36,261 nucleotides of DNA. Origin: Candidatus Limisoma sp. (GTDB taxonomy: Bacteria; Bacteroidota; Bacteroidia; Bacteroidales; Muribaculaceae). Below are positions 2,070-20,105 of this stretch, one piece after another. The notes beneath the pieces were generated by a model that saw nothing but the letters and a program-made list of their open reading frames with translations, was not told the origin of the DNA and did not search any database. A program made the position numbers and the translations under genes. Numbering within the stretch: the stretch's first letter is position 1; every line of letters starts with the position of its first letter. Location of the stretch: contig JBJEDP010000071.1 of NCBI GenBank assembly GCA_051872175.1, positions 1 to 36,261 on the forward strand, written 5' to 3'.

Positions 2070-3866
2070 ATGAAAAGGCTTATAAGAACATTTTTATTTA
2101 CAATGGCAGCAGTTGCAGCCGTAGGCGCATCTGCCGATAACGGTGTGGGAATGCGTTATCTCGGACAAGGACATTCGATACTGACACCCCAAACCGGCGA
2201 GCGCTATATGATGCTCCCGGTGCAGGAGTCGTGTGACGAATCGCGTGTTGTTGTCTATAATGATAACAAGATTAAAGAGACAATTTTCGTGCGTCTTGCC
2301 AAAGATAAGGTTGATTATTATGTGCCGTATGCAGTCGCAGCGGGAGATGCTCTCTACGTGCATACGCCAACTAACGGCGAAGGTGAGTCGTTGCACAAAA
2401 CCGGAGAAAGTGCCGTATGGGCAAAACAAGTTCGTATGGCAGATTCGTACAGTTTCGACAACGAGCCGCATCGCCCGGCTTATCATTTTGCTCCTGAGCA
2501 CGGATGGATGAACGACCCGAACGGTATGTTCTACAAGGACGGCGTCTACCATCTGTACTATCAGTACAATCCCTATGCGTCAGTGTGGGGCAATCTGAGT
2601 TGGGGCCATGCAACGAGCCGCGATTTAGTGCATTGGAAGCATGAACCGGTGGCAATTACGCCGGACGCTTTGGGTATGATTTTCAGCGGCTCGTCGGTGG
2701 TCGACACCGACAATACGTCGGGTCTGGGCGCCGGCACGATAGTTTCGTTCTACACGTCGGCAAGCGAGCGCCAGATGCAGAGCATGGCATATAGCACAGA
2801 TGGCGGTATGACGTTTACGAAATATGCCGGCAACCCGGTTGTGACATCTAATGTTCCGGACTTCCGCGACCCGAAGGTGATTTGGCATGAGCCTACGCAT
2901 CGTTGGGTGATGGTGCTTGCGGCAGGACAACAGATGCAGTTCTACACGTCAGCCGACCTTAAGTCGTGGACCTACGAGAGCGCATTCGGCTTGGAGGTAG
3001 GGTGCCACGATGGCGTTTGGGAGTGCCCCGACTTGTTCGAACTCCCCGTTGAAGGTACCGACCAAAAACGTTGGGTGCTGCTCTGTAACATCAACCCCGG
3101 CGGCCCCGGCGGCGGTTCGGCTACGCAGTATTTCATCGGCTCGTTCGACGGCCATCGCTTCGTTGTCGACACACCTTGTGCTACCAAGTGGATGGATTGG
3201 GGTCGCGACCATTATGCTACCGTTTCGTGGAGCAATGCTCCCGAAGGTCGTCGCGTTGCCATCGCCTGGATGAGCAACTGGCAGTACGCACCTGTTGTGC
3301 CTACTCGCGCTTTCCGCAGCGCATACAGCCTGCCGCGCGACTTGAGTCTGTATGCTTACAACGGCGACATTTTCATAAAGTCGACTCCTGTGCGTGAAAT
3401 CGAGGCTTGTCGCAAAGTCGTTTTGGCGCAGTCGAAGATTTCGCTCAAGACAACTCCGCGCAGCTTTGCTTTGCCGGCTGGTCTTAACGGCATTTACGCA
3501 ATTGAGATGGACGTAGCAAATCCGGAACACGGCGATGTTGTGGTGACGCTTGCCAATTCGAAAGGCGAGAAAGTCGACATGACTTACAATGGCAAAACTT
3601 TTGCTTTCGATCGCACAAAAAGCGGTTTGACCGACTTCAATGGCGATTTTGCATCGACAACGACTTGCGACGTTGCAAGCACTTCGTCGACGATGCATTT
3701 GACTCTCTATGTCGACCGCTCGAGCATAGAAGCGTTTGGCGACGGTGGTCGGTTTGTTCAAACTAATCTTGTGTTTCCGACTGTCCCCTATGATAAAATT
3801 ACAGTTCGGGCTAATGCCAAAAAGGCAAAAATCAACAATTTAAAGGTTTACAAAATAACATTATAG
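2070..3866 (+). CDS. GH32 beta-fructofuranosidase / levanase-inulinase-type exo-fructosidase, secreted or periplasmic
   Basis: ATG at 2070. The N-terminus is signal-peptide-like (MKRLIRTFLFTMAAVAAVGASA). Canonical GH32 blocks are present: WMNDPNGMFYKDGVYHLYYQYNP, FRDPKV and WECPDLF. Confidence 0.9.
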   Translation: MKRLIRTFLFTMAAVAAVGASADNGVGMRYLGQGHSILTPQTGERYMMLPVQESCDESRVVVYNDNKIKETIFVRLAKDKVDYYVPYAVAAGDALYVHTPTNGEGESLHKTGESAVWAKQVRMADSYSFDNEPHRPAYHFAPEHGWMNDPNGMFYKDGVYHLYYQYNPYASVWGNLSWGHATSRDLVHWKHEPVAITPDALGMIFSGSSVVDTDNTSGLGAGTIVSFYTSASERQMQSMAYSTDGGMTFTKYAGNPVVTSNVPDFRDPKVIWHEPTHRWVMVLAAGQQMQFYTSADLKSWTYESAFGLEVGCHDGVWECPDLFELPVEGTDQKRWVLLCNINPGGPGGGSATQYFIGSFDGHRFVVDTPCATKWMDWGRDHYATVSWSNAPEGRRVAIAWMSNWQYAPVVPTRAFRSAYSLPRDLSLYAYNGDIFIKSTPVREIEACRKVVLAQSKISLKTTPRSFALPAGLNGIYAIEMDVANPEHGDVVVTLANSKGEKVDMTYNGKTFAFDRTKSGLTDFNGDFASTTTCDVASTSSTMHLTLYVDRSSIEAFGDGGRFVQTNLVFPTVPYDKITVRANAKKAKINNLKVYKITL

Positions 3867-3869
3867 AAG

Positions 3870-5018
3870 ATGGAAGAAAAGAAATTCAACTATACCAAAC
3901 TAATACCGGTCTTGTTGGCGTTTTTTGCCATGGGCTTTGTCGACCTGGTAGGTATAGCGACCAATTACGTAAAACTCGACCTCGAACTGACCGATACGGT
4001 AGCCAATATGTTGCCGTCGATGGTGTTCTTTTGGTTCTTGATATTCTCGGTGCCGTCGGGCGTGCTGATGAATCGCATCGGCCGCCGCAATACGGTGCTC
4101 GTGTCGTTGGTGATAACAACGGTGTCGCTGCTTTTGCCCATCGTTTGTCCCTACAACATGGTGTGGATGATTGTGTCGTTCTCGCTGTTGGGCATCGGTA
4201 ACGCAATCATGCAAACGTCAATCAATCCCTTGGTGTCGAACTTGGTAAGCGGCAAGCATTTGGCAAGCACGATGACTTTCGGACAGTTTGTCAAAGCAAT
4301 AGCCTCGTTTATTGCGCCGATAATCGCCGGATGGGCTGCAGTGCGCTTCCACGATTGGCAAATGTTGTTCCCCATCTTTATGGCAGTGTCGGTAATCGCC
4401 GTGATTGCTTTGGGCGCAACTCATATCGAAGAAAGCAGCAGCGAGACCACCTCGTTCGGACAATGCTTCCGCCTGTTGGGCGACAAACTCGTGTTGCTTT
4501 CGTTCTTAGGCATTATGTGCCACGTAGGTATTGACGTGGGTACTAACGTAACGGCGCCAAAGGTGCTGATGGAGCGCGCCCACTTTTCGCTTGCCGAAGC
4601 GGGATTCGCTACGAGTGTTTACTTCTTGTTCCGTACGATTGGCTGCTTCAGCGGTTCGTTCATCCTGTCGAAAGTGTCGGCGAAATTGTTTTTCGTCATC
4701 AGCACGGTGTGCATGATTTTAGGAATGGGCGGTCTTTTATTTGCAGATTCTGTAGAATTGATATATATTTGCGTAGCGCTCATCGGTTTCGGCAACTCGA
4801 ACATCTTCCCGATTATCGTGTCGCAAGCGATGTTGCGTTTGCCGGAGCAGAAGAATGCCGTATCGGGCTTAATGATTATGGGATTGTTCGGAGGAACAAT
4901 TTTCCCGTTGGTAATGGGCTATGCGTCCGACTCATTGGGCTCGCAAATAGGCGCTGTGGCAGTAATGTTAGTCGGCGTTGTCTATTTGACATTCTTTGGA
5001 ACAAAAGTAAAAAAGTAA
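3870..5018 (+). CDS. MFS sugar transporter (FucP / glucose-galactose-transporter-like), likely the fructose importer of the locus
   Basis: 382 aa with about 12 hydrophobic spans. An MFS loop motif (MNRIGRRNT) follows TM2. The gene starts 3 nt after the GH32 stop. Its position is equivalent to the inner-membrane sugar importer of the Bacteroides thetaiotaomicron fructan locus. Confidence 0.8.
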   Translation: MEEKKFNYTKLIPVLLAFFAMGFVDLVGIATNYVKLDLELTDTVANMLPSMVFFWFLIFSVPSGVLMNRIGRRNTVLVSLVITTVSLLLPIVCPYNMVWMIVSFSLLGIGNAIMQTSINPLVSNLVSGKHLASTMTFGQFVKAIASFIAPIIAGWAAVRFHDWQMLFPIFMAVSVIAVIALGATHIEESSSETTSFGQCFRLLGDKLVLLSFLGIMCHVGIDVGTNVTAPKVLMERAHFSLAEAGFATSVYFLFRTIGCFSGSFILSKVSAKLFFVISTVCMILGMGGLLFADSVELIYICVALIGFGNSNIFPIIVSQAMLRLPEQKNAVSGLMIMGLFGGTIFPLVMGYASDSLGSQIGAVAVMLVGVVYLTFFGTKVKK

Positions 5019-15600: not shown

Positions 15601-17071
15601 GGTGGTAGTCACCGAATCGCTCAAGGAAGACAAAAACATCTGGAAGGAAATCGGCGACCACGCAGCGCGTTTCGCCATGTCGGTGCGCAGTGCCTCGTTT
15701 AAGTGGCGCAACACGCACACGTCGAACATTCCGCAATTCATCCCCGACGTGGGCGACTTGCTCGGACAGTCGCGCAACTACGGGCCGATGTCGCCGGGTC
15801 TCGACTTCGCCTTCGGATTTACCGACGAGAGCTATTTGCAAAAAGCTATGGACCGCGGTTGGTTGCTGTGCGACCAAAACCAGACGTCGCCGGCAATCTT
15901 CTCGCGCACCGAAGAGTATACCTTCGAACTGCAACTCGAGCCGATTCGCGGATTGAAAATCCAACTTACGGCAAACCATACCGACAACCGTACCAACCAG
16001 GTGCAATTTATGTACGACGGCATGCCGACCACGCGCACAGGTAGTTTCAACATGACCACCTGCGCTATCCGCACCGCTCTGGGTCGTAGTAGCGCTGACG
16101 ACGGCTACAACAGCGACACCTACAACAAGTTTATATCCTATCTGCCGCAGATAGCACAACGCCTCGAGCAACGCTATGCAGGCTCCGTCTATCCCTCGAC
16201 GGGATTCCTCGAAGGCTCTGCCTACGCCGGACAACCCTACACCGACGGCGTCGGTGGGGTCAACCAGTCGAGCAGCGACGTGATGATTCCGGCGTTCATT
16301 GCCGCCTACACCGGAAAAGACCCAAACAAGGTCACACTATCGCCGTTCCCATCGCTGTCGAAGATATTGCCAAACTGGCGCGTGACCTACGACGGCCTTA
16401 TCAAAATCGGCAACCTCAAGAAGATTTTCAAGAGCCTGACACTCTCGCACGCTTATCAATGTACTTACAGCGTCGGGTCGTTCAACTCCTACCTCAACTG
16501 GGTGTCGATTGGCGGCGACCTCGGCTTTACTCTCGACGAACTGACGCAGCGACCCGTGCCCTCGTCGCCCTACAACATTTCGTCGGTGTCGATTACCGAA
16601 AAATTCGCTCCGCTCGTCGGTCTTGCCGCTACACTGAACAACAACTTGACTCTCAACGCCGAATATCGCGACAGCCGCACACTTACGCTTAACTCCGACG
16701 CCGGACAACTCGTCGAAGCAAATCAGCGTGGCGTGACCGTAGGCGCAGGCTATAAGATTGCAAACTTCAACTCGGTGCTCAAAATCAAGGGTAAACAGCA
16801 AGGCGTAAGCAACGACCTAACGCTCAATTGCGACTTCTCGCTTCAAAATACGCAAGCGCTTATCCGTAAAATTCAGGAAGGTACAAGCCAGGCAACCAGC
16901 GGTACGAAGTCGATGACCATCAACTTTACCGCCAACTATGTGCTCAGCAAGCGCATAACCCTCTCGGCGTACTTCGACCACCAAATCAACAAGCCGTTGA
17001 TTTCCTCATCGTCGTATCCGACCACCAACAGCAACTACGGCTTGTCGGTCAACGTCTCCCTCGCGAGGTAA
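9617..17071 (+). CDS. sprA: T9SS outer-membrane translocon SprA (Sov)
   Basis: 2484 aa with a signal-like N-terminus. The composition is beta-rich (aromatic, Asn and Gly rich) throughout. The gene starts 7 nt after the ruvA stop, and as far as I recall the ruvA-sprA neighbourhood is typical of Bacteroidota. The size and sequence character match SprA and nothing else I know. Confidence 0.9.
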   Translation: MASFKKRYRKTGVLAVLLCLASSVMVFPQYKKSEMTPPPPLSTQTPQPADSSRLHYKVKNTVPTSYDEVLSNERNPIDLRDPSNVKSEAEYDPTTGCYVVRTRIGDREIVTPFILSADEYNSKEIRESMMEYYRKKNSELYENKGKDKFNIFDMKFSLGPLEKVFGPGGVQLKTQGSVQVQMGVKSNKTDNPALPASARRKTYFDFDQKIQATVDASVGDKLKFNMTYNTDATFDFDSKNLKLKYEGKEDEIIKSIEAGNVSMTTGSSLIKGSTALFGMKTKLQFGKLTVTALVSQQNSESQTVNTKGGAQKTAFSINADDYDKNRHFFLSHFFREHYDEFASKLPYVSSGINITRIEVWITNTRSSYNESRNIVGFMDLGENRVLQSSHWTPDASVAVPSNNSNSLLNEIKTGYPDARYISSVTSALEPLSAVGIEGGRDFEKIESARLLSSSEYKLNASLGYISLTSALNADEILCVAYEYTYQGKNYKVGEFSSDVTDTSQSLYLKLLKGATVSPQFANWRLMMKNVYSLGAYQVQKQNFKLNIKYLNDTTGTAVQYLPVEPIRSTPLLRVMNLDRLDSNNETNPDGFYDFLEGYTVVASQGKIIFPVAEPFGSYLESKIADPDDAKKYVYKELYDSTQTVAKQFQDKNKFILEGEYQASSGSQIRLNAMNVPRGSVVVTAGGVTLTENSDYTVDYNMGIVTITNQSIIDSGTNISVSLENQSLYSMQRKTLLGLDLNYAFNKDFNIGGTLMHFSEKPLTEKVSIGDELINNTIWGMNMSYNKNFMWLTNLVNKIPTVNATAPSTLSVQGEFAQLIPHKQKTGTNSGSSFIDDFETSQNTIDIRSPYSWFLASTPYDSSADALFPEAALSNNVDYGKNRALLAWYYVDRMFTQKNSSLCPAYLKNDLRQMSSPYIREVTTKEIWPNRELNYGEASAIQTLNLSFYPTERGPYNLDDTNIDADFNLLNPERRWGGIMRKLDNTNFESSNIEYIQFWLMDPFIDDVDVPNTSEGGDLYFNLGEVSEDILKDGFKAYENGNPIDGSTNKTRETVWGRVSTETSVAYAFDNTAGARRYQDVGLNGLHTDAEFEFPTYKNYVDNLRLKLSPAKIAELEDDQFSPFNDPAGDNYHYYRGYDYDEQQAGVLERYKHYNGTEGNSLGDDDSRDRLYQSSRSVPDVEDINQDNTLNEYERYYQYHISLRPKDMVVGENYITDKQEYIATLRNGQKQATTWYQFKIPLKEYEKKVGSISDFSTIRFIRMFLTGFRETTHLRFATMELVRGDWRTYDYNLNTRGETPAEGQLAMSVVNIEENSGREPVNYVLPPGVNRIVDPGQSQITQLNEQSLSLKVTNIKPGDARAVYKNTSLDLRIYKRLQMFAHAERLITDVAGDLKDGDFSVFLRLGTDIKNNYYEYEVPVKLTPAIQGGVFYNNNSQNDRYIVWPEQNFFDIHTSVFTDVKKQRNREKADPSSGVGYTTVYSDYDPYHDGNRVSVIGNPSLGDVRVVMVGVRNNSASERSGEVWVNELKVTDFDEDGGWAAKANVNLGISDIATVNFAGHIETVGFGGVDQSLANRRLDDYKQYNVATQVDVGRFLPEKVKLKAPVYYSLTKEKTSPKYNPLDQDILLEDALDNAVDKAERDSIKNYAIDQSTVKSFSVSGFNFGVKGKTPMPWDPANFTLNFSFNKQENISPTIEYEHINDYRGSFQYVFSPYFKPFKPFSSIKSKSKNLKFFKDWEFNYLPTSINFLTNMTRYYYELQSRNEADISVEVPVSVSKNFYWDRQFQLQWNVTKQLSLSFSSNTMARIEEAMGQVNKKLFPDRYKEWRDTVWNSIKGFGTPWNYDQTFTASYKAPFNKIPVLDFLTGNVSYNSTYKWDRGTEIEGSSVGNSIANNGVWNVDGKFNFENLYNKSKYLKEVNKRFSNTQRTQTKQKKPKKFQRTFQLNDSTATEVRHNLKTKKLQVKATTLDGKPFPIKTEIVDDNNLKIITKGKQNIKVVVTESLKEDKNIWKEIGDHAARFAMSVRSASFKWRNTHTSNIPQFIPDVGDLLGQSRNYGPMSPGLDFAFGFTDESYLQKAMDRGWLLCDQNQTSPAIFSRTEEYTFELQLEPIRGLKIQLTANHTDNRTNQVQFMYDGMPTTRTGSFNMTTCAIRTALGRSSADDGYNSDTYNKFISYLPQIAQRLEQRYAGSVYPSTGFLEGSAYAGQPYTDGVGGVNQSSSDVMIPAFIAAYTGKDPNKVTLSPFPSLSKILPNWRVTYDGLIKIGNLKKIFKSLTLSHAYQCTYSVGSFNSYLNWVSIGGDLGFTLDELTQRPVPSSPYNISSVSITEKFAPLVGLAATLNNNLTLNAEYRDSRTLTLNSDAGQLVEANQRGVTVGAGYKIANFNSVLKIKGKQQGVSNDLTLNCDFSLQNTQALIRKIQEGTSQATSGTKSMTINFTANYVLSKRITLSAYFDHQINKPLISSSSYPTTNSNYGLSVNVSLAR

Positions 17072-17114
17072 GAGGTAAAAGGTAAGAGGTAAGGGGTAAT
17101 AGGTAAGAGGTAAG
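17066..17114 (+). repeat. Tandem heptamer array, 7 units: AGGTAAG x5, AGGTAAA, GGGTAAT
   Basis: The units occupy 17066-72, 73-79, 80-86, 87-93, 94-100, 101-107 and 108-114. The sprA stop codon TAA (17069-17071) lies inside the first unit. Confidence 0.9.
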
Positions 17115-17124
17115 ACTACTTCCG

Positions 17125-17213
17125 TTTATCCGCCCTTTCTAATCTGCTGATATTCAACGCTGAAGCTCTAAAATGCGAATAATATAGCTGTTTATCCGCC
17201 CATTTATCCGCCC
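17125..17213 (+). repeat. Three direct copies of TTTATCCGCCC. Two of them are part of longer 21-nt copies, (G/A)TTTATCCGCCCTTTC(T/G)A(A/T)TC.
   Basis: The copies are at 17125-17135, 17191-17201 and 17203-13. The extended copies are 17124-17144 and 17202-17222. A diverged relative (CGGCATTTTCTAATC) lies immediately 3' of the fic stop at 19051-19065. Confidence 0.85.
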
Positions 17214-17220
17214 TTTCGAT

Positions 17221-17263
17221 TCCTACTATTCTTGTTCGTAGTAGTATGAATAGTCGATGCCTT
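17221..17263 (-). repeat. 43-bp duplicate of the fic gene 3' end (left copy of a direct repeat; partner at 19064-19106)
   Basis: TCCTACTATTCTTGTTCGTAGTAGTATGAATAGTCGATGCCTT compared with TCCTACTCTTCTTGTTCGTAGTAGTATGAATAGTCGATACCTT gives 41/43 identity. The reverse complement of the left copy reads GIDYSYYYEQE**. The right copy is the true C-terminus, GIDYSYYYEQEE*. Confidence 0.9.
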
Positions 17264-17353
17264 TTTGTTTTGATTTTTTTATTGACAAATAAGCTGATTT
17301 TTTTGTCTGCTGTTAATTAAGTTTAAATATCGGCGTGTTTAGTCGTTTTGTGG

Positions 17354-17383
17354 TTGACAAATTGGGTAAAATATGTAAATTTG
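17354..17383 (+). promoter_or_regulatory. Candidate promoter of the HTH-ImmA/PIN module
   Basis: TAAATTTG (17376-17383) matches the Bacteroides -7 consensus TAnnTTTG. GTTG/TTGACA at 17353-17359 lies 19 nt upstream. The ATG at 17411 is about 28 nt downstream. Confidence 0.5.
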
Positions 17384-17410
17384 TAAACCGAAACAATTTA
17401 TGATAACACT

Positions 17411-18463
17411 ATGAATGCTCTATTTTCTTCACGACTAAAGCAAGCTCGGATAATGCAAGGGTTATCTATGGATGCTCTTTGCGAGAAAGCGGATAATGCA
17501 CTGAGTAAGCAGTCTATTTCAAAATACGAAACCGGAAAGATGATGCCCGATAGCAAGTCGCTGATAATCCTCGCAAACGCATTGGGTTTGAGTGTCGATT
17601 ATTTTTTTCGACCTCTTGGTGTCGTTGTTGAGAGAGTTGAGTTTCGCAAGAAATCTAAATTGGGCAAAAAGCAGGAACTCGCCATTAAAGAGGTTGTAAA
17701 AGACAATTTGGAACGTTATTTTGAAATAGAATCATTTAATGACATCAAGTCGGAATTTAAGCCGATATGTCGAAATGTTTTGATACAAAGCGAAGATGAC
17801 GTGTTCTCGTTTGTCACTCGCATAAAGAATGATTGGAAATTGGGCGAGGATGGTATCAATAATCTTATTGAGATTCTTGAAGAAAACCAAATCAAAGTTA
17901 TAGAAATAGATGCTCCGAATAGCTTTGACGGTTTAAGCGGTTATGTGAATGGCAAAAATCCGTTTATTGTGCTTAATCGGAATTGTAATAGCGAACGTAA
18001 GCGTTTTACGGCTTTGCACGAATTGGGCCATTTGATACTGACGTTCGATAGTTCAATCGACCAACGAGGAGTTGAGCAGTTGTGTCATCTTTTTGCAAGC
18101 GAAATGTTAATTTCAAAAGATGTGTTCATACAAAGAATCGGGCTGAATCGTAAAGACATTTCGTTGCAAGAGCTGCAAGACATTCAGATTCAATTCGGAA
18201 TCTCGATTGATGCTTTGATGCATAAGGCTTGGGCACTAAACATAATAACAGAAAGTCGCTATAAAACTTTTCATATAAAGAAGAATCGGAATCAACAATT
18301 CAAAGAAGAAGTTGACCGCAGTCGATATAAAACCGAGCAAACAAATCGATTTGTCAGATTGGTGTATAGGGCTTTGGCAAGTGAAATTATATCAATATCC
18401 AAAGCCGGTGTGTTGTTGAATGTGCCTGTGGGTGTTGTGCGTAACCAATTGAGTTTAGTGTAA
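17411..18463 (+). CDS. Fused XRE-family HTH / ImmA-IrrE (M78, COG2856-type) zinc metallopeptidase protein
   Basis: The N-terminal HTH reads RLKQARIMQGLSMDALCEKADNALSKQSISKYETGKMMPDSKSLIILANALGLSVDYF. The HEXXH zinc motif HELGH is at aa 203-207 (nt 18017-18031) in the context RFTALHELGHLIL, with a downstream E (FASEML). Confidence 0.85.
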   Translation: MNALFSSRLKQARIMQGLSMDALCEKADNALSKQSISKYETGKMMPDSKSLIILANALGLSVDYFFRPLGVVVERVEFRKKSKLGKKQELAIKEVVKDNLERYFEIESFNDIKSEFKPICRNVLIQSEDDVFSFVTRIKNDWKLGEDGINNLIEILEENQIKVIEIDAPNSFDGLSGYVNGKNPFIVLNRNCNSERKRFTALHELGHLILTFDSSIDQRGVEQLCHLFASEMLISKDVFIQRIGLNRKDISLQELQDIQIQFGISIDALMHKAWALNIITESRYKTFHIKKNRNQQFKEEVDRSRYKTEQTNRFVRLVYRALASEIISISKAGVLLNVPVGVVRNQLSLV

Positions 18464-18464
18464 A

Positions 18465-18968
18465 ATGGAAATTGTAGTCAACGATACAAATATTTTCATT
18501 GACCTCTATTCCGTTGGGATGTTAGAGCAATTCTTTGATTTGTCGATAAAAGTGCACACCGTTGACTTTATTGTAAATGAAATTACCGATAACGACCAAA
18601 TCAAAGCCATTCGCAAATATATTGATAATGGAAAACTTTATGTTCAATCGTTTGATGCAAAAGAATTGCTTGAAGTCGTGGAACTACACAATAATGCGGG
18701 AGGTAATGTCTCAATCCCGGATTGTGCAGTGTGGTATTATGCGAAGAAACATAATTATACGTTACTGACGGGCGATGGGCAACTCCGAAAGAAAGCCATT
18801 GAGTCGAGTGTTGATGTAAAAGGGATTATTTTTGTTTTCGACCGTTTAGTGGAAGAAAGAATCATTTCGTCTACCTATGCCGCGACTAAATTGCGAGAAT
18901 TGTTAAAACAAAATTTGCGTTTGCCAATATCTATAATAAGGGAACGCATCGAAAAGTGGAGTAGTTGA
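18465..18968 (+). CDS. PIN-like nuclease domain protein (putative toxin/effector)
   Basis: The ATG is 1 nt after the upstream stop (gtgTAAaATG). The first strand is PIN-like with an acidic residue (IVVNDTNIFIDL). The later acidic/Thr block LLTGDGQLRKKA is followed by a helical tail. The protein is 167 aa. Confidence 0.7.
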   Translation: MEIVVNDTNIFIDLYSVGMLEQFFDLSIKVHTVDFIVNEITDNDQIKAIRKYIDNGKLYVQSFDAKELLEVVELHNNAGGNVSIPDCAVWYYAKKHNYTLLTGDGQLRKKAIESSVDVKGIIFVFDRLVEERIISSTYAATKLRELLKQNLRLPISIIRERIEKWSS

Positions 18969-19065
18969 TTGTTCTGATTTTAACAATTTAACAAATCCGT
19001 TGCACGCACTGCGATGATCTTTCTGTGCGACGAAAATATTTTTAACTAAACGGCATTTTCTAATC

Positions 19066-19947
19066 CTACTCTTCTTGTTCGTAGTAGTATGAATAGTCGA
19101 TACCTTTGAGGAATATTTCTCTGCTATCGGTTTTTGTGGTTATGGCACTGTGAAGGAGTTGCTTGATGTGTGTAGAATCGGCTACACTTTGTGTCATTGC
19201 TTCCAGGTAGTCGTGCTTTCCAATCTTACTCCAGTCGATGCAGCAATGATGACGCGCTTTGAGCATCAGGTCGAGCCATATGCGTGTGCTGCGTCCGTTG
19301 CCTTCCATGAATGGGTGCGCCACGTTCATTTCTACGTATTTTTCAAACACCTCATCAAGCGTGTTTTCCGGCATACGCTCAATCCGCTCTAACTGCTGAG
19401 GCAGGTATTGAGCAAGGCAGAAAGTGAAACCACCTTTGGAGATTGTTTTGGTGCGTATCTGCCCGGCAAAATCATACAGTCCGCCGAAAATATACGCGTG
19501 TATCTGCTGCAGAGCCTTTGCCGTTCCTTCGCTAAAAGTGTCGACCATATTGCTCTCGTATAGCGCATAAGCCTTCTTCTTGCTCTGCCCGTCGATGGTG
19601 TTGTCGCTGTAGGTGAGCCAATCGAGAAATGCCGTTGCTTTTTGATTGGGGATAGCTTTTGCAAGTGCCGCGATGCCGTCGGCGTCGAGTGTGTCGGTAA
19701 GATATTTCTTTCCGTCGGCTGCGCGTAATTTCAGTTGGTTAGTGGCGCTAACCAACTCGTTGCCTTCTTTCTTGAGTTTTGTCTTCAGATACTTCCAGTA
19801 GTTGCGTGTTTTGGCATAGTCGTCCTGCTCGTTGATGGCACCAATGACGTCAAGGACAGAGAAATACCAACGGGCATTTTCTTCCGCCCAGACGGCGCGG
19901 ACCTCGCGGTCGTTGTAGAATCGGATGGATATCTTCGGCTCTTTCAT
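19066..19947 (-). CDS. Fic/DOC-family protein (AMPylase-type) with an N-terminal Bro-N-like DNA-binding domain
   Basis: The Fic motif HPFMEGNGRSTR is encoded at 19282-19317 (verified by back-translation), and GGLYDFAGQIRT lies upstream of it. The N-terminal ~110 aa (ISIRFYNDREVRAVW..WYFSVLDVIGAI...ADGIAALAKAIPNQKATAFLDWL) fit the Bro-N pattern. The start is reassigned to ATG 19947 (MKEPKISIRF), because the track start at 20058 is a TTG extension. Confidence 0.85.
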   Translation of the reverse strand: MKEPKISIRFYNDREVRAVWAEENARWYFSVLDVIGAINEQDDYAKTRNYWKYLKTKLKKEGNELVSATNQLKLRAADGKKYLTDTLDADGIAALAKAIPNQKATAFLDWLTYSDNTIDGQSKKKAYALYESNMVDTFSEGTAKALQQIHAYIFGGLYDFAGQIRTKTISKGGFTFCLAQYLPQQLERIERMPENTLDEVFEKYVEMNVAHPFMEGNGRSTRIWLDLMLKARHHCCIDWSKIGKHDYLEAMTQSVADSTHIKQLLHSAITTKTDSREIFLKGIDYSYYYEQEE

Positions 19948-20105
19948 CGGTCTATAATGCGGTTTCGTTTGTGACTTGCAATTACTGCGAAGATACGAAA
20001 TTTTTTGGGTATAATAAAAATATTTGCGAACTTTGCAAAACGATGCTTTGGGCGGCAATGGTTGCCGCGCGGGCGTTTTCTAATTACAGGCTCAATCAAC
20101 GAACT

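Follow-up and report, generated by a model that had tools for sequence, protein, structure and literature searches.

The window analysed here is a 36,261-nucleotide (nt) contig of Candidatus Limisoma sp. (JBJEDP010000071.1, assembly GCA_051872175.1), in which positions 17411-18968 hold a two-gene module with features of a toxin-antitoxin (TA) system. Gene 1 (17411-18463, forward strand) encodes a protein of 350 residues and ends with a TAA stop codon at 18461-18463. Gene 2 (18465-18968, same strand) encodes 167 residues and starts with an ATG at 18465, 1 nt beyond the gene 1 stop. An earlier note on this DNA, made from the sequence alone, had given these coordinates and the 1-nt junction, and an open reading frame check matched both exactly. 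The motifs it had singled out were found as well, HELGH at residues 203-207 of gene 1 (nt 18017-18031) and IVVNDTNIF and LLTGDG in gene 2. Its description of the module as low in GC also held, with a GC fraction of 0.37-0.39 across 17001-19000 compared with ~0.53 on both flanks. The whole AT-rich cassette of 1.77 kb, from the promoter/operator through both genes to the terminator, spans 17276-19042 on the forward strand, as delimited by a block of homology to two other loci (L004 and L005), which moves as a unit, and by its GC fraction (0.37-0.38 against 0.53). Its end is marked by a terminator-like hairpin and a T-rich tail (18998-19042, forward strand; predicted site 18998-19016), and the cassette homology stops at 19041/19042.

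Gene 1 encodes an XRE-type helix-turn-helix (HTH) domain fused to an M78 (ImmA/IrrE) peptidase. Pfam HTH_3 matched residues 9-65 above its curated cut-off (expect value, E, 6.5e-14), and Peptidase_M78 matched residues 158-272 (E 2.7e-13; 50.3 bits, cut-off 22), in agreement with the XRE-HTH and HEXXH peptidase proposed before. The HTH DNA-binding domain (residues 5-66; 17423-17608, forward strand) was matched in the PDB by the 434 repressor, C.Csp231I, ImmR and the N-terminal domain of CapH. The M78 domain (17882-18226, forward strand) contains the HELGH motif. An AlphaFold2 model of the protein (predicted local distance difference test, pLDDT, 91.4) was compared with known structures using Foldseek; its peptidase was closest to CapP and IrrE/PprI, and its HTH domain to C-proteins, ImmR and CI. 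Among the PADLOC models, 14 RmrA models matched gene 1 over nearly its full length (E 6.5e-41 to 2.4e-23), and matches were also obtained to capP (3.3e-15, residues 151-274) and capH (6.1e-6, residues 2-97). The nearest NCBIfam model was the spr1629 family repressor/antitoxin (3.3e-28, under its cut-off). We annotate gene 1 as an RmrA-like putative repressor-antitoxin.

We examined the conservation of the zinc site in 58 gene 1 homologues. E204, H207, E222 and E231 do not vary, H203 is kept in at least 90% of the sequences, and the predicted HExxH+E zinc site is intact. In an alignment to Thauera CapP, E222 coincided with the Glu of the E-x-x-A-x-x-F-A motif. We take this Glu to be the third zinc ligand of CapP, with E222 as its putative equivalent in gene 1. 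E231 was considered for the same role and rejected, as the CapP alignment favours E222. Note that C225 (nt 18083-18085), three residues past E222, is an invariant Cys in a place taken by Ala in most M78 proteins. PDB entry 9vzy (393 residues, 'HTH cro/C1-type domain-containing protein') is a solved structure of a fused HTH and M78 protein and has the E-x-x-C-N motif in common with gene 1. No paper tied to this entry was found; it is possibly the first structure solved for an RmrA-like protein.

The linker between the two domains contains a further conserved element. CapP cuts CapH between F82 and R83, just past the HTH domain, and the R83A mutation blocks the cut (10.1101/2022.04.27.489752). 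In the same 58 homologues of gene 1, F78 is invariant and R79 at least 90% conserved, and the pair sits 12 residues past the HTH domain (17642-17647, forward strand). From this resemblance to CapH we infer a candidate (auto)cleavage site at F78-R79. Residues 236-350 of gene 1 are all-helical in the AlphaFold2 model, so the protein is without a GAF domain, the ssDNA-binding domain of IrrE and CapP (C-terminal in CapP), and the alignment to CapP leaves a gap at the position of the CapP cysteine-switch loop.

Sequence searches with gene 2 gave weak or empty results. In Pfam, DUF5615 scored just over its cut-off (E 3.3e-5), and PIN (1.7e-4) and DUF3368 (3.1e-4) were both under theirs; the DUF3368 match (PF11848, hmmscan, 21.0 bits, cut-off 27.3) covered only the C-terminal residues 118-165. 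Precomputed annotation gives PF11848, which corresponds to the COG2405 PIN-like family of Matelska et al., to gene 2 and to all 120 homologues among the matches listed. PADLOC returned weak matches to the candidate family PDC-S70 (8e-6), KwaB and PDC-M42B, and the NCBIfam scan gave nothing useful. A PDB search with the single gene 2 sequence produced no matches, and one with a gene 2 profile produced a weak match to Nob1/PIN (1.7e-4). We therefore settled the fold by structure comparison. The AlphaFold2 model of gene 2 (pLDDT 93.9) had 34 Foldseek matches in the PDB at E <= 1e-3, and the top ranks were occupied exclusively by PIN proteins, including Nob1, HARP RNase P, PAE0151/PAE2754, VapC and FitB; the COG2405 representative 2mdt came at rank 40. 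On the basis of this model we are confident that gene 2 has the PIN alpha/beta/alpha fold. Five acidic residues (D13, D34, E39, D86 and D104) are the same in every sequence of a 48-homologue alignment, and D7 and D126 reach at least 90% conservation. The putative acidic set D7, E39, D86 and D104 is complete. Fold and acidic residues together uphold the original PIN-like call, for which a missing acidic quartet had been named as a point to check. We annotate gene 2 as a PIN-like nuclease of the COG2405/DUF3368 family and a putative toxin/effector.

To what extent the two genes belong together was analyzed in a survey of one genome per species, which yielded 80 loci with a relative of gene 2 (44-98% identity), almost all from Bacteroidales. 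Two of these loci are cut by a contig end and were left out of the pairing count. A homologue of gene 1 (40-99% identity) directly precedes the PIN gene in the same orientation in 78 of the 78 testable loci, and in all of them the distance from the gene 1 stop to the gene 2 start is between -1 and +4 nt. The reciprocal search, starting from gene 1 homologues of ~55% identity, again found a DUF3368 gene 4 nt downstream. A neighbourhood survey had been suggested in the earlier note as a check on co-localisation, and the HTH-M78 partner adjoins the PIN gene throughout. Thus, gene 1 and gene 2 form one tightly coupled, strictly co-inherited unit. The other flanking genes differ from locus to locus; tyrosine integrases account for 12 of 119, and RhuM, HaeIII restriction-modification, Schlafen-like helicase, AAA_14/DUF4143, PDDEXK and nSTAND genes are found among the rest.

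We next consider the region upstream of gene 1. The best sigma-70-like site in 17000-19200 combines TTGACA (17354-17359) with the Bacteroidetes -7 box TAAATTTG (17376-17383), both on the forward strand, and matches 10 of 12 positions. These promoter-like elements are overlapped by an inverted repeat, GGTTGACA-N22-TGTAAACC (17352-17389), whose left arm takes in the TTG of TTGACA. Apart from this repeat, the upstream regions of distant loci are unalignable. Its conserved core, GTTKAC-N24/25-GTMAAC, lies at most 130 nt ahead of the gene 1 start in 70 of 74 loci and has no other match on either strand in 750 kb of loci; in the window it matches once. In 67 of the 70 loci the right arm of the repeat ends on the TG of the TAnnTTTG box. 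The TAnnTTTG promoter had already been proposed in the earlier note. The box at 17376-17383 stood up, its position being kept in 67/70 loci; the motif alone did not, as the window contains 23 TAnnTTTG matches where 18 +/- 4 are expected, which is no enrichment. Judged from its sequence and placement, the palindrome is likely an operator for autorepression, to which a gene 1 dimer would bind with half-sites about three helical turns apart. A second upstream copy of TTGACAAAT (17281-17289) was considered as an extra operator and rejected, as neither L004 nor L005 conserves it.

Xre-COG2856 modules were reportedly described in 2009 by Makarova et al., a forerunner of the three-component TA prediction later made by Matelska et al. 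In that later work, HTH-DUF955 fusions were found directly upstream of COG2405/DUF3368 genes, or of DUF4411 and PIN_14/20/26 genes, as in Geobacillus GYMC61_2169, and it was proposed, in a purely computational study, that the peptidase cleaves its own HTH domain and so activates the PIN gene (PMC5499597). This architecture is identical to that of the module; the Bacteroidales clade, the operator and the F78-R79 site are not described there. RosmerTA, a phage defence system reported by Millman et al. in 2022, consists of a Zn-peptidase antitoxin, RmrA, and a toxin of unassigned function, and rmrA proved impossible to delete (10.1101/2022.05.11.491447). It was enrichment in defence islands that brought the RmrA family to light (10.1101/2022.05.11.491447; PMC10440598). 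In the NetFlax study of Ernits et al. (2023), an ImmA node pairs with PIN-like toxins, and Rosmer systems defend against phage; the RmrTA pair of Gordonia phage Kita was validated there and its RmrT toxin depolarises the membrane, RmrT toxins being heterogeneous by definition (PMC10440598). Complex prediction for Kita RmrTA has been unsuccessful (pDockQ 0.05). A further Rosmer-family pair is RipAB (spr1630/spr1629) of S. pneumoniae, in which RipA targets DnaN and RipB neutralises RipA in trans (10.1101/2025.09.02.673660).

The module resembles RosmerTA in its N-terminal XRE HTH and ImmA-like Zn-peptidase, as in RmrA, in its two-gene operon and in its defence-island-type context, and its toxin falls within a class that is variable by family definition. 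It differs in that its toxin is PIN-like (DUF3368/COG2405), whereas the characterised Rosmer toxins depolarise the membrane (Kita RmrT) or target DnaN (RipA), and in that its host belongs to the Bacteroidales and its promoter is of the Bacteroidetes type, unlike RosmerTA, the Kita pair and RipAB. With VapBC systems it has in common the PIN fold, the four-acid site and a toxin gene that follows the gene for its DNA-binding partner, the two overlapping or standing close together. In contrast to VapBC, this partner is a 350-residue HTH-metallopeptidase (78/78 loci) and not a small ribbon-helix-helix, AbrB, Phd or UPF0175 antitoxin, and gene 2 has an additional C-terminal helical extension (residues 121-166 in the AlphaFold2 model). 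The module belongs to the RosmerTA/HTH-COG2856 family with a PIN-like toxin and is not a new kind of system. The earlier note had called the pairing uncharacterised in experiments as far as known, and no experimental study of an HTH-M78 and PIN pair was found in the literature library searched; the pairing itself, however, had already been described in 2017 (PMC5499597) and is covered by RosmerTA and NetFlax.

Taken together, we consider the module to be a Rosmer-type TA cassette with a PIN-like effector, having both the architecture and the control logic of a TA system, with a probability of roughly 70%. The candidate TA-like or abortive-infection system suggested by the earlier note is supported, with the RmrA match, the PIN fold and its acidic residues, the pairing in 78/78 loci, the palindrome and the accessory context (see below) all in agreement. 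For a role in phage defence, we regard the odds as about even. Several points weigh against the assignment. Gene 1 is without the GAF domain and the cysteine-switch loop, so the ssDNA-sensing mechanism of CapP and IrrE is not simply transferable. Direct binding between the gene 1 protein and the PIN protein is unsupported, and no settled mechanism for RosmerTA itself was found in the literature searched. None of the PADLOC RmrT models hits gene 2 at E <= 1. Detection tools are therefore less likely to call the system automatically, but the functional analogy is not diminished, since RmrT toxins are heterogeneous. Finally, the COG2405 family contains members with incomplete active sites (PMC5499597).

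The following sequence of events would account for the operation of a Rosmer-type cassette with these components. Gene 1 dimers would bind the palindrome via their HTH domains and autorepress the operon. Gene 1 would also keep the PIN nuclease harmless, either through direct binding or by restricting how much of it is made. The M78 peptidase would be activated by a stress signal associated with infection or DNA damage and would then cut the HTH linker, the candidate site being F78-R79 by analogy with the action of CapP on CapH F82-R83. The cut would derepress the operon and/or release the PIN nuclease, leading to degradation of RNA and arrest of growth. This would result either in abortive infection or in addiction to the cassette. 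A single-stranded DNA (ssDNA) trigger by analogy with CapP and IrrE was considered and downgraded as unlikely as such, because gene 1 is without the GAF domain and the switch loop. In a more specific and tentative version, which we consider rather doubtful, gene 1 would be sensor, repressor and antitoxin in a single self-cleaving chain that responds to a trigger other than GAF-bound ssDNA; its M78 domain would cut the linker at F78-R79, either in the same chain or in the other chain of the dimer, and a single cut would both lift the HTH domains off the operator, with its 30-bp spacing, and free the PIN nuclease. If true, such single-chain self-cleavage would be the first mechanistic account of switching by a Rosmer-type antitoxin.

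The surroundings of the module in the window were analyzed by comparison with related loci. In 26 metagenome loci (L088-L114), in which the C-terminus of SprA is 76-81% identical, a gene of 552 residues follows directly after sprA, with neither a Fic gene nor the module present. Because sprA and this gene are adjacent in relatives, positions 17072-20042 of the window are a ~3-kb accessory insertion. It holds two cassettes, the module and a gene for a Bro-N/Fic protein, and no recombinase was found within it. The cassette is horizontally acquired. The Bro-N/Fic gene (19066-19947, reverse strand, 293 residues) is a neighbouring cassette separate from the operon. It matches the PADLOC defence candidate PDC-S04 (4.6e-159) and, above the cut-off, the NCBIfam equivalog for NmFic adenylyltransferase (7.1e-74). 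Note that it has no obvious partner antitoxin gene.

We weighed other explanations against a Rosmer-type TA cassette. The module might be a purely transcriptional switch, in which gene 1 is a fused sensor-repressor of the CapH-CapP type and the PIN gene is silenced and then induced, with no neutralisation of its protein and hence no TA relationship. The palindrome spanning both promoter elements would fit such a switch, as would the capH and capP matches of gene 1, in residues 2-97 and 151-274, respectively; moreover, Lau et al. noted a vapC-like gene adjoining a CapH-CapP fusion beside DISARM (10.1101/2022.04.27.489752). The module indeed shares a homologous HTH repressor and M78 peptidase with CapH/CapP, IrrE/DdrO and ImmA/ImmR. 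However, CapH and CapP are separate proteins, and their genes are typically divergent from the operon under their control (10.1101/2022.04.27.489752), whereas the HTH domain and the peptidase of the module are one chain, encoded co-directionally and co-transcribed with the effector from one promoter across a gap of -1 to +4 nt. With a shared promoter, repression lowers both proteins and leakage makes both, which is the logic of a TA system. In addition, a related Rosmer antitoxin acts in trans on an ectopically expressed toxin, and the failure to obtain an rmrA deletion points in the same direction. We consider a transcription-only switch unlikely.

A TA-like architecture is also what a purely selfish addiction or stabilisation module would have, that is, a classical type II TA pair that retains the cassette or its host island and plays no part against phage. 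The tyrosine integrases among the flanking genes (12/119), which indicate carriage on integrative elements, and the shifting position of the cassette among close relatives would suit this explanation. Yet the RmrA family is enriched in defence islands and defends against phage, and defence-type genes neighbour the module both here (Fic, PDC-S04) and elsewhere (restriction-modification, PDDEXK, AAA, nSTAND). Addiction and defence are, moreover, mutually compatible roles. We consider the purely selfish version as improbable as the transcription-only switch. Far less probable still is that gene 1 acts as an ImmR/ImmA-type switch for lysogeny or for excision of an integrative and conjugative element, with the PIN gene as adjacent cargo. 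Here the homology of the gene 1 domains to ImmR and ImmA, and one subclade with a tyrosine integrase of 454 residues 120 nt upstream, are set against a ~3-kb insertion in the window that contains no integrase, excisionase or other element gene, a PIN partner that is constant in 78/78 loci where all other surroundings vary, and a palindrome located at the pair's own promoter.

As a Rosmer-type TA cassette, the module and its relatives extend the Rosmer/HTH-COG2856 family by a well-defined group from the Bacteroidales, comprising ~200 PIN clusters that are paired throughout. Since the PADLOC toxin models scanned miss the PIN toxin of this clade, defence censuses of the gut microbiome may under-count it. 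The operator GTTKAC-N24/25-GTMAAC and the F78-R79 pair offer concrete handles on the switching of Rosmer antitoxins and on the 2017 hypothesis of a protease-gated PIN nuclease.

The arrangement of the two cassettes at the sprA locus differs among close relatives. The window is a metagenome contig (Logan SRR30616783), and the genomes nearest to it are a Bacteroidales metagenome-assembled genome and a Candidatus Limisoma metagenome-assembled genome. The module block 17276-19042 is 97% identical to positions 1306-3073 of L004 and 94% identical to positions 4812-6578 of L005, and its position relative to the Fic gene varies among the window, L004 and L005. The order in L005 is sprA-Fic-module, and L004 is arranged likewise except for a deletion inside its Fic gene. 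Reading on from sprA, the window has a 51-nt remnant of the Fic 3' end, then the module, then Fic. The module is here bracketed by two 51-nt direct repeats with a spacing of 1843 nt and 92% identity; the left copy (17214-17264) is the Fic remnant and corresponds to the 3' region of Fic in L005 and L004, and the right copy (19057-19107) belongs to the intact Fic gene, of which it makes up the 3' end. The brackets are shorter in L004 and L005, where the module lies between copies of a 13-14-nt repeat, ACGAAATTTTTTG(G); the segments concerned are 955-1306 and 3062-3075 in L004 and 3828-4812 and 6567-6578 in L005. This permutation of cassettes shows turnover of small defence cassettes in gut Bacteroidales.

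Flanking direct repeats as a general feature of the module were considered and rejected, as convincing exact repeats were found only in the window (51 nt) and in L004 (14 nt). On inspection, the L005 junctions carry the same 13-nt motif as L004. Repeats at other loci are at most 13 nt long and look like chance, or are unrelated (L059, L075). The repeats flanking the module across loci provide no evidence of a transposon-like mechanism.

Several minor features of these loci were recorded. The left breakpoint of the internal Fic deletion in L004, GATGCCTTTTT, is identical to that of the Fic remnant in the window. Between sprA and this remnant, at 17124-17216, the sequence GTTTATCCGCCC(T/A)TT occurs three times, and similar copies sit downstream of Fic in L005 and L004. 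In a subclade of ten loci with a module of ~50% identity (L029, L033-L035, L038, L046, L048, L050, L051 and L076), a tyrosine integrase gene of 454-456 residues ends ~120 nt upstream of gene 1, which suggests carriage on an integrative element, and a gene of 245-250 residues lies 6-70 nt past gene 2. At 17065-17115 of the window, 7.3 tandem copies of the heptamer GAGGTAA extend from the sprA stop codon, with a different copy number in L005 and L004.

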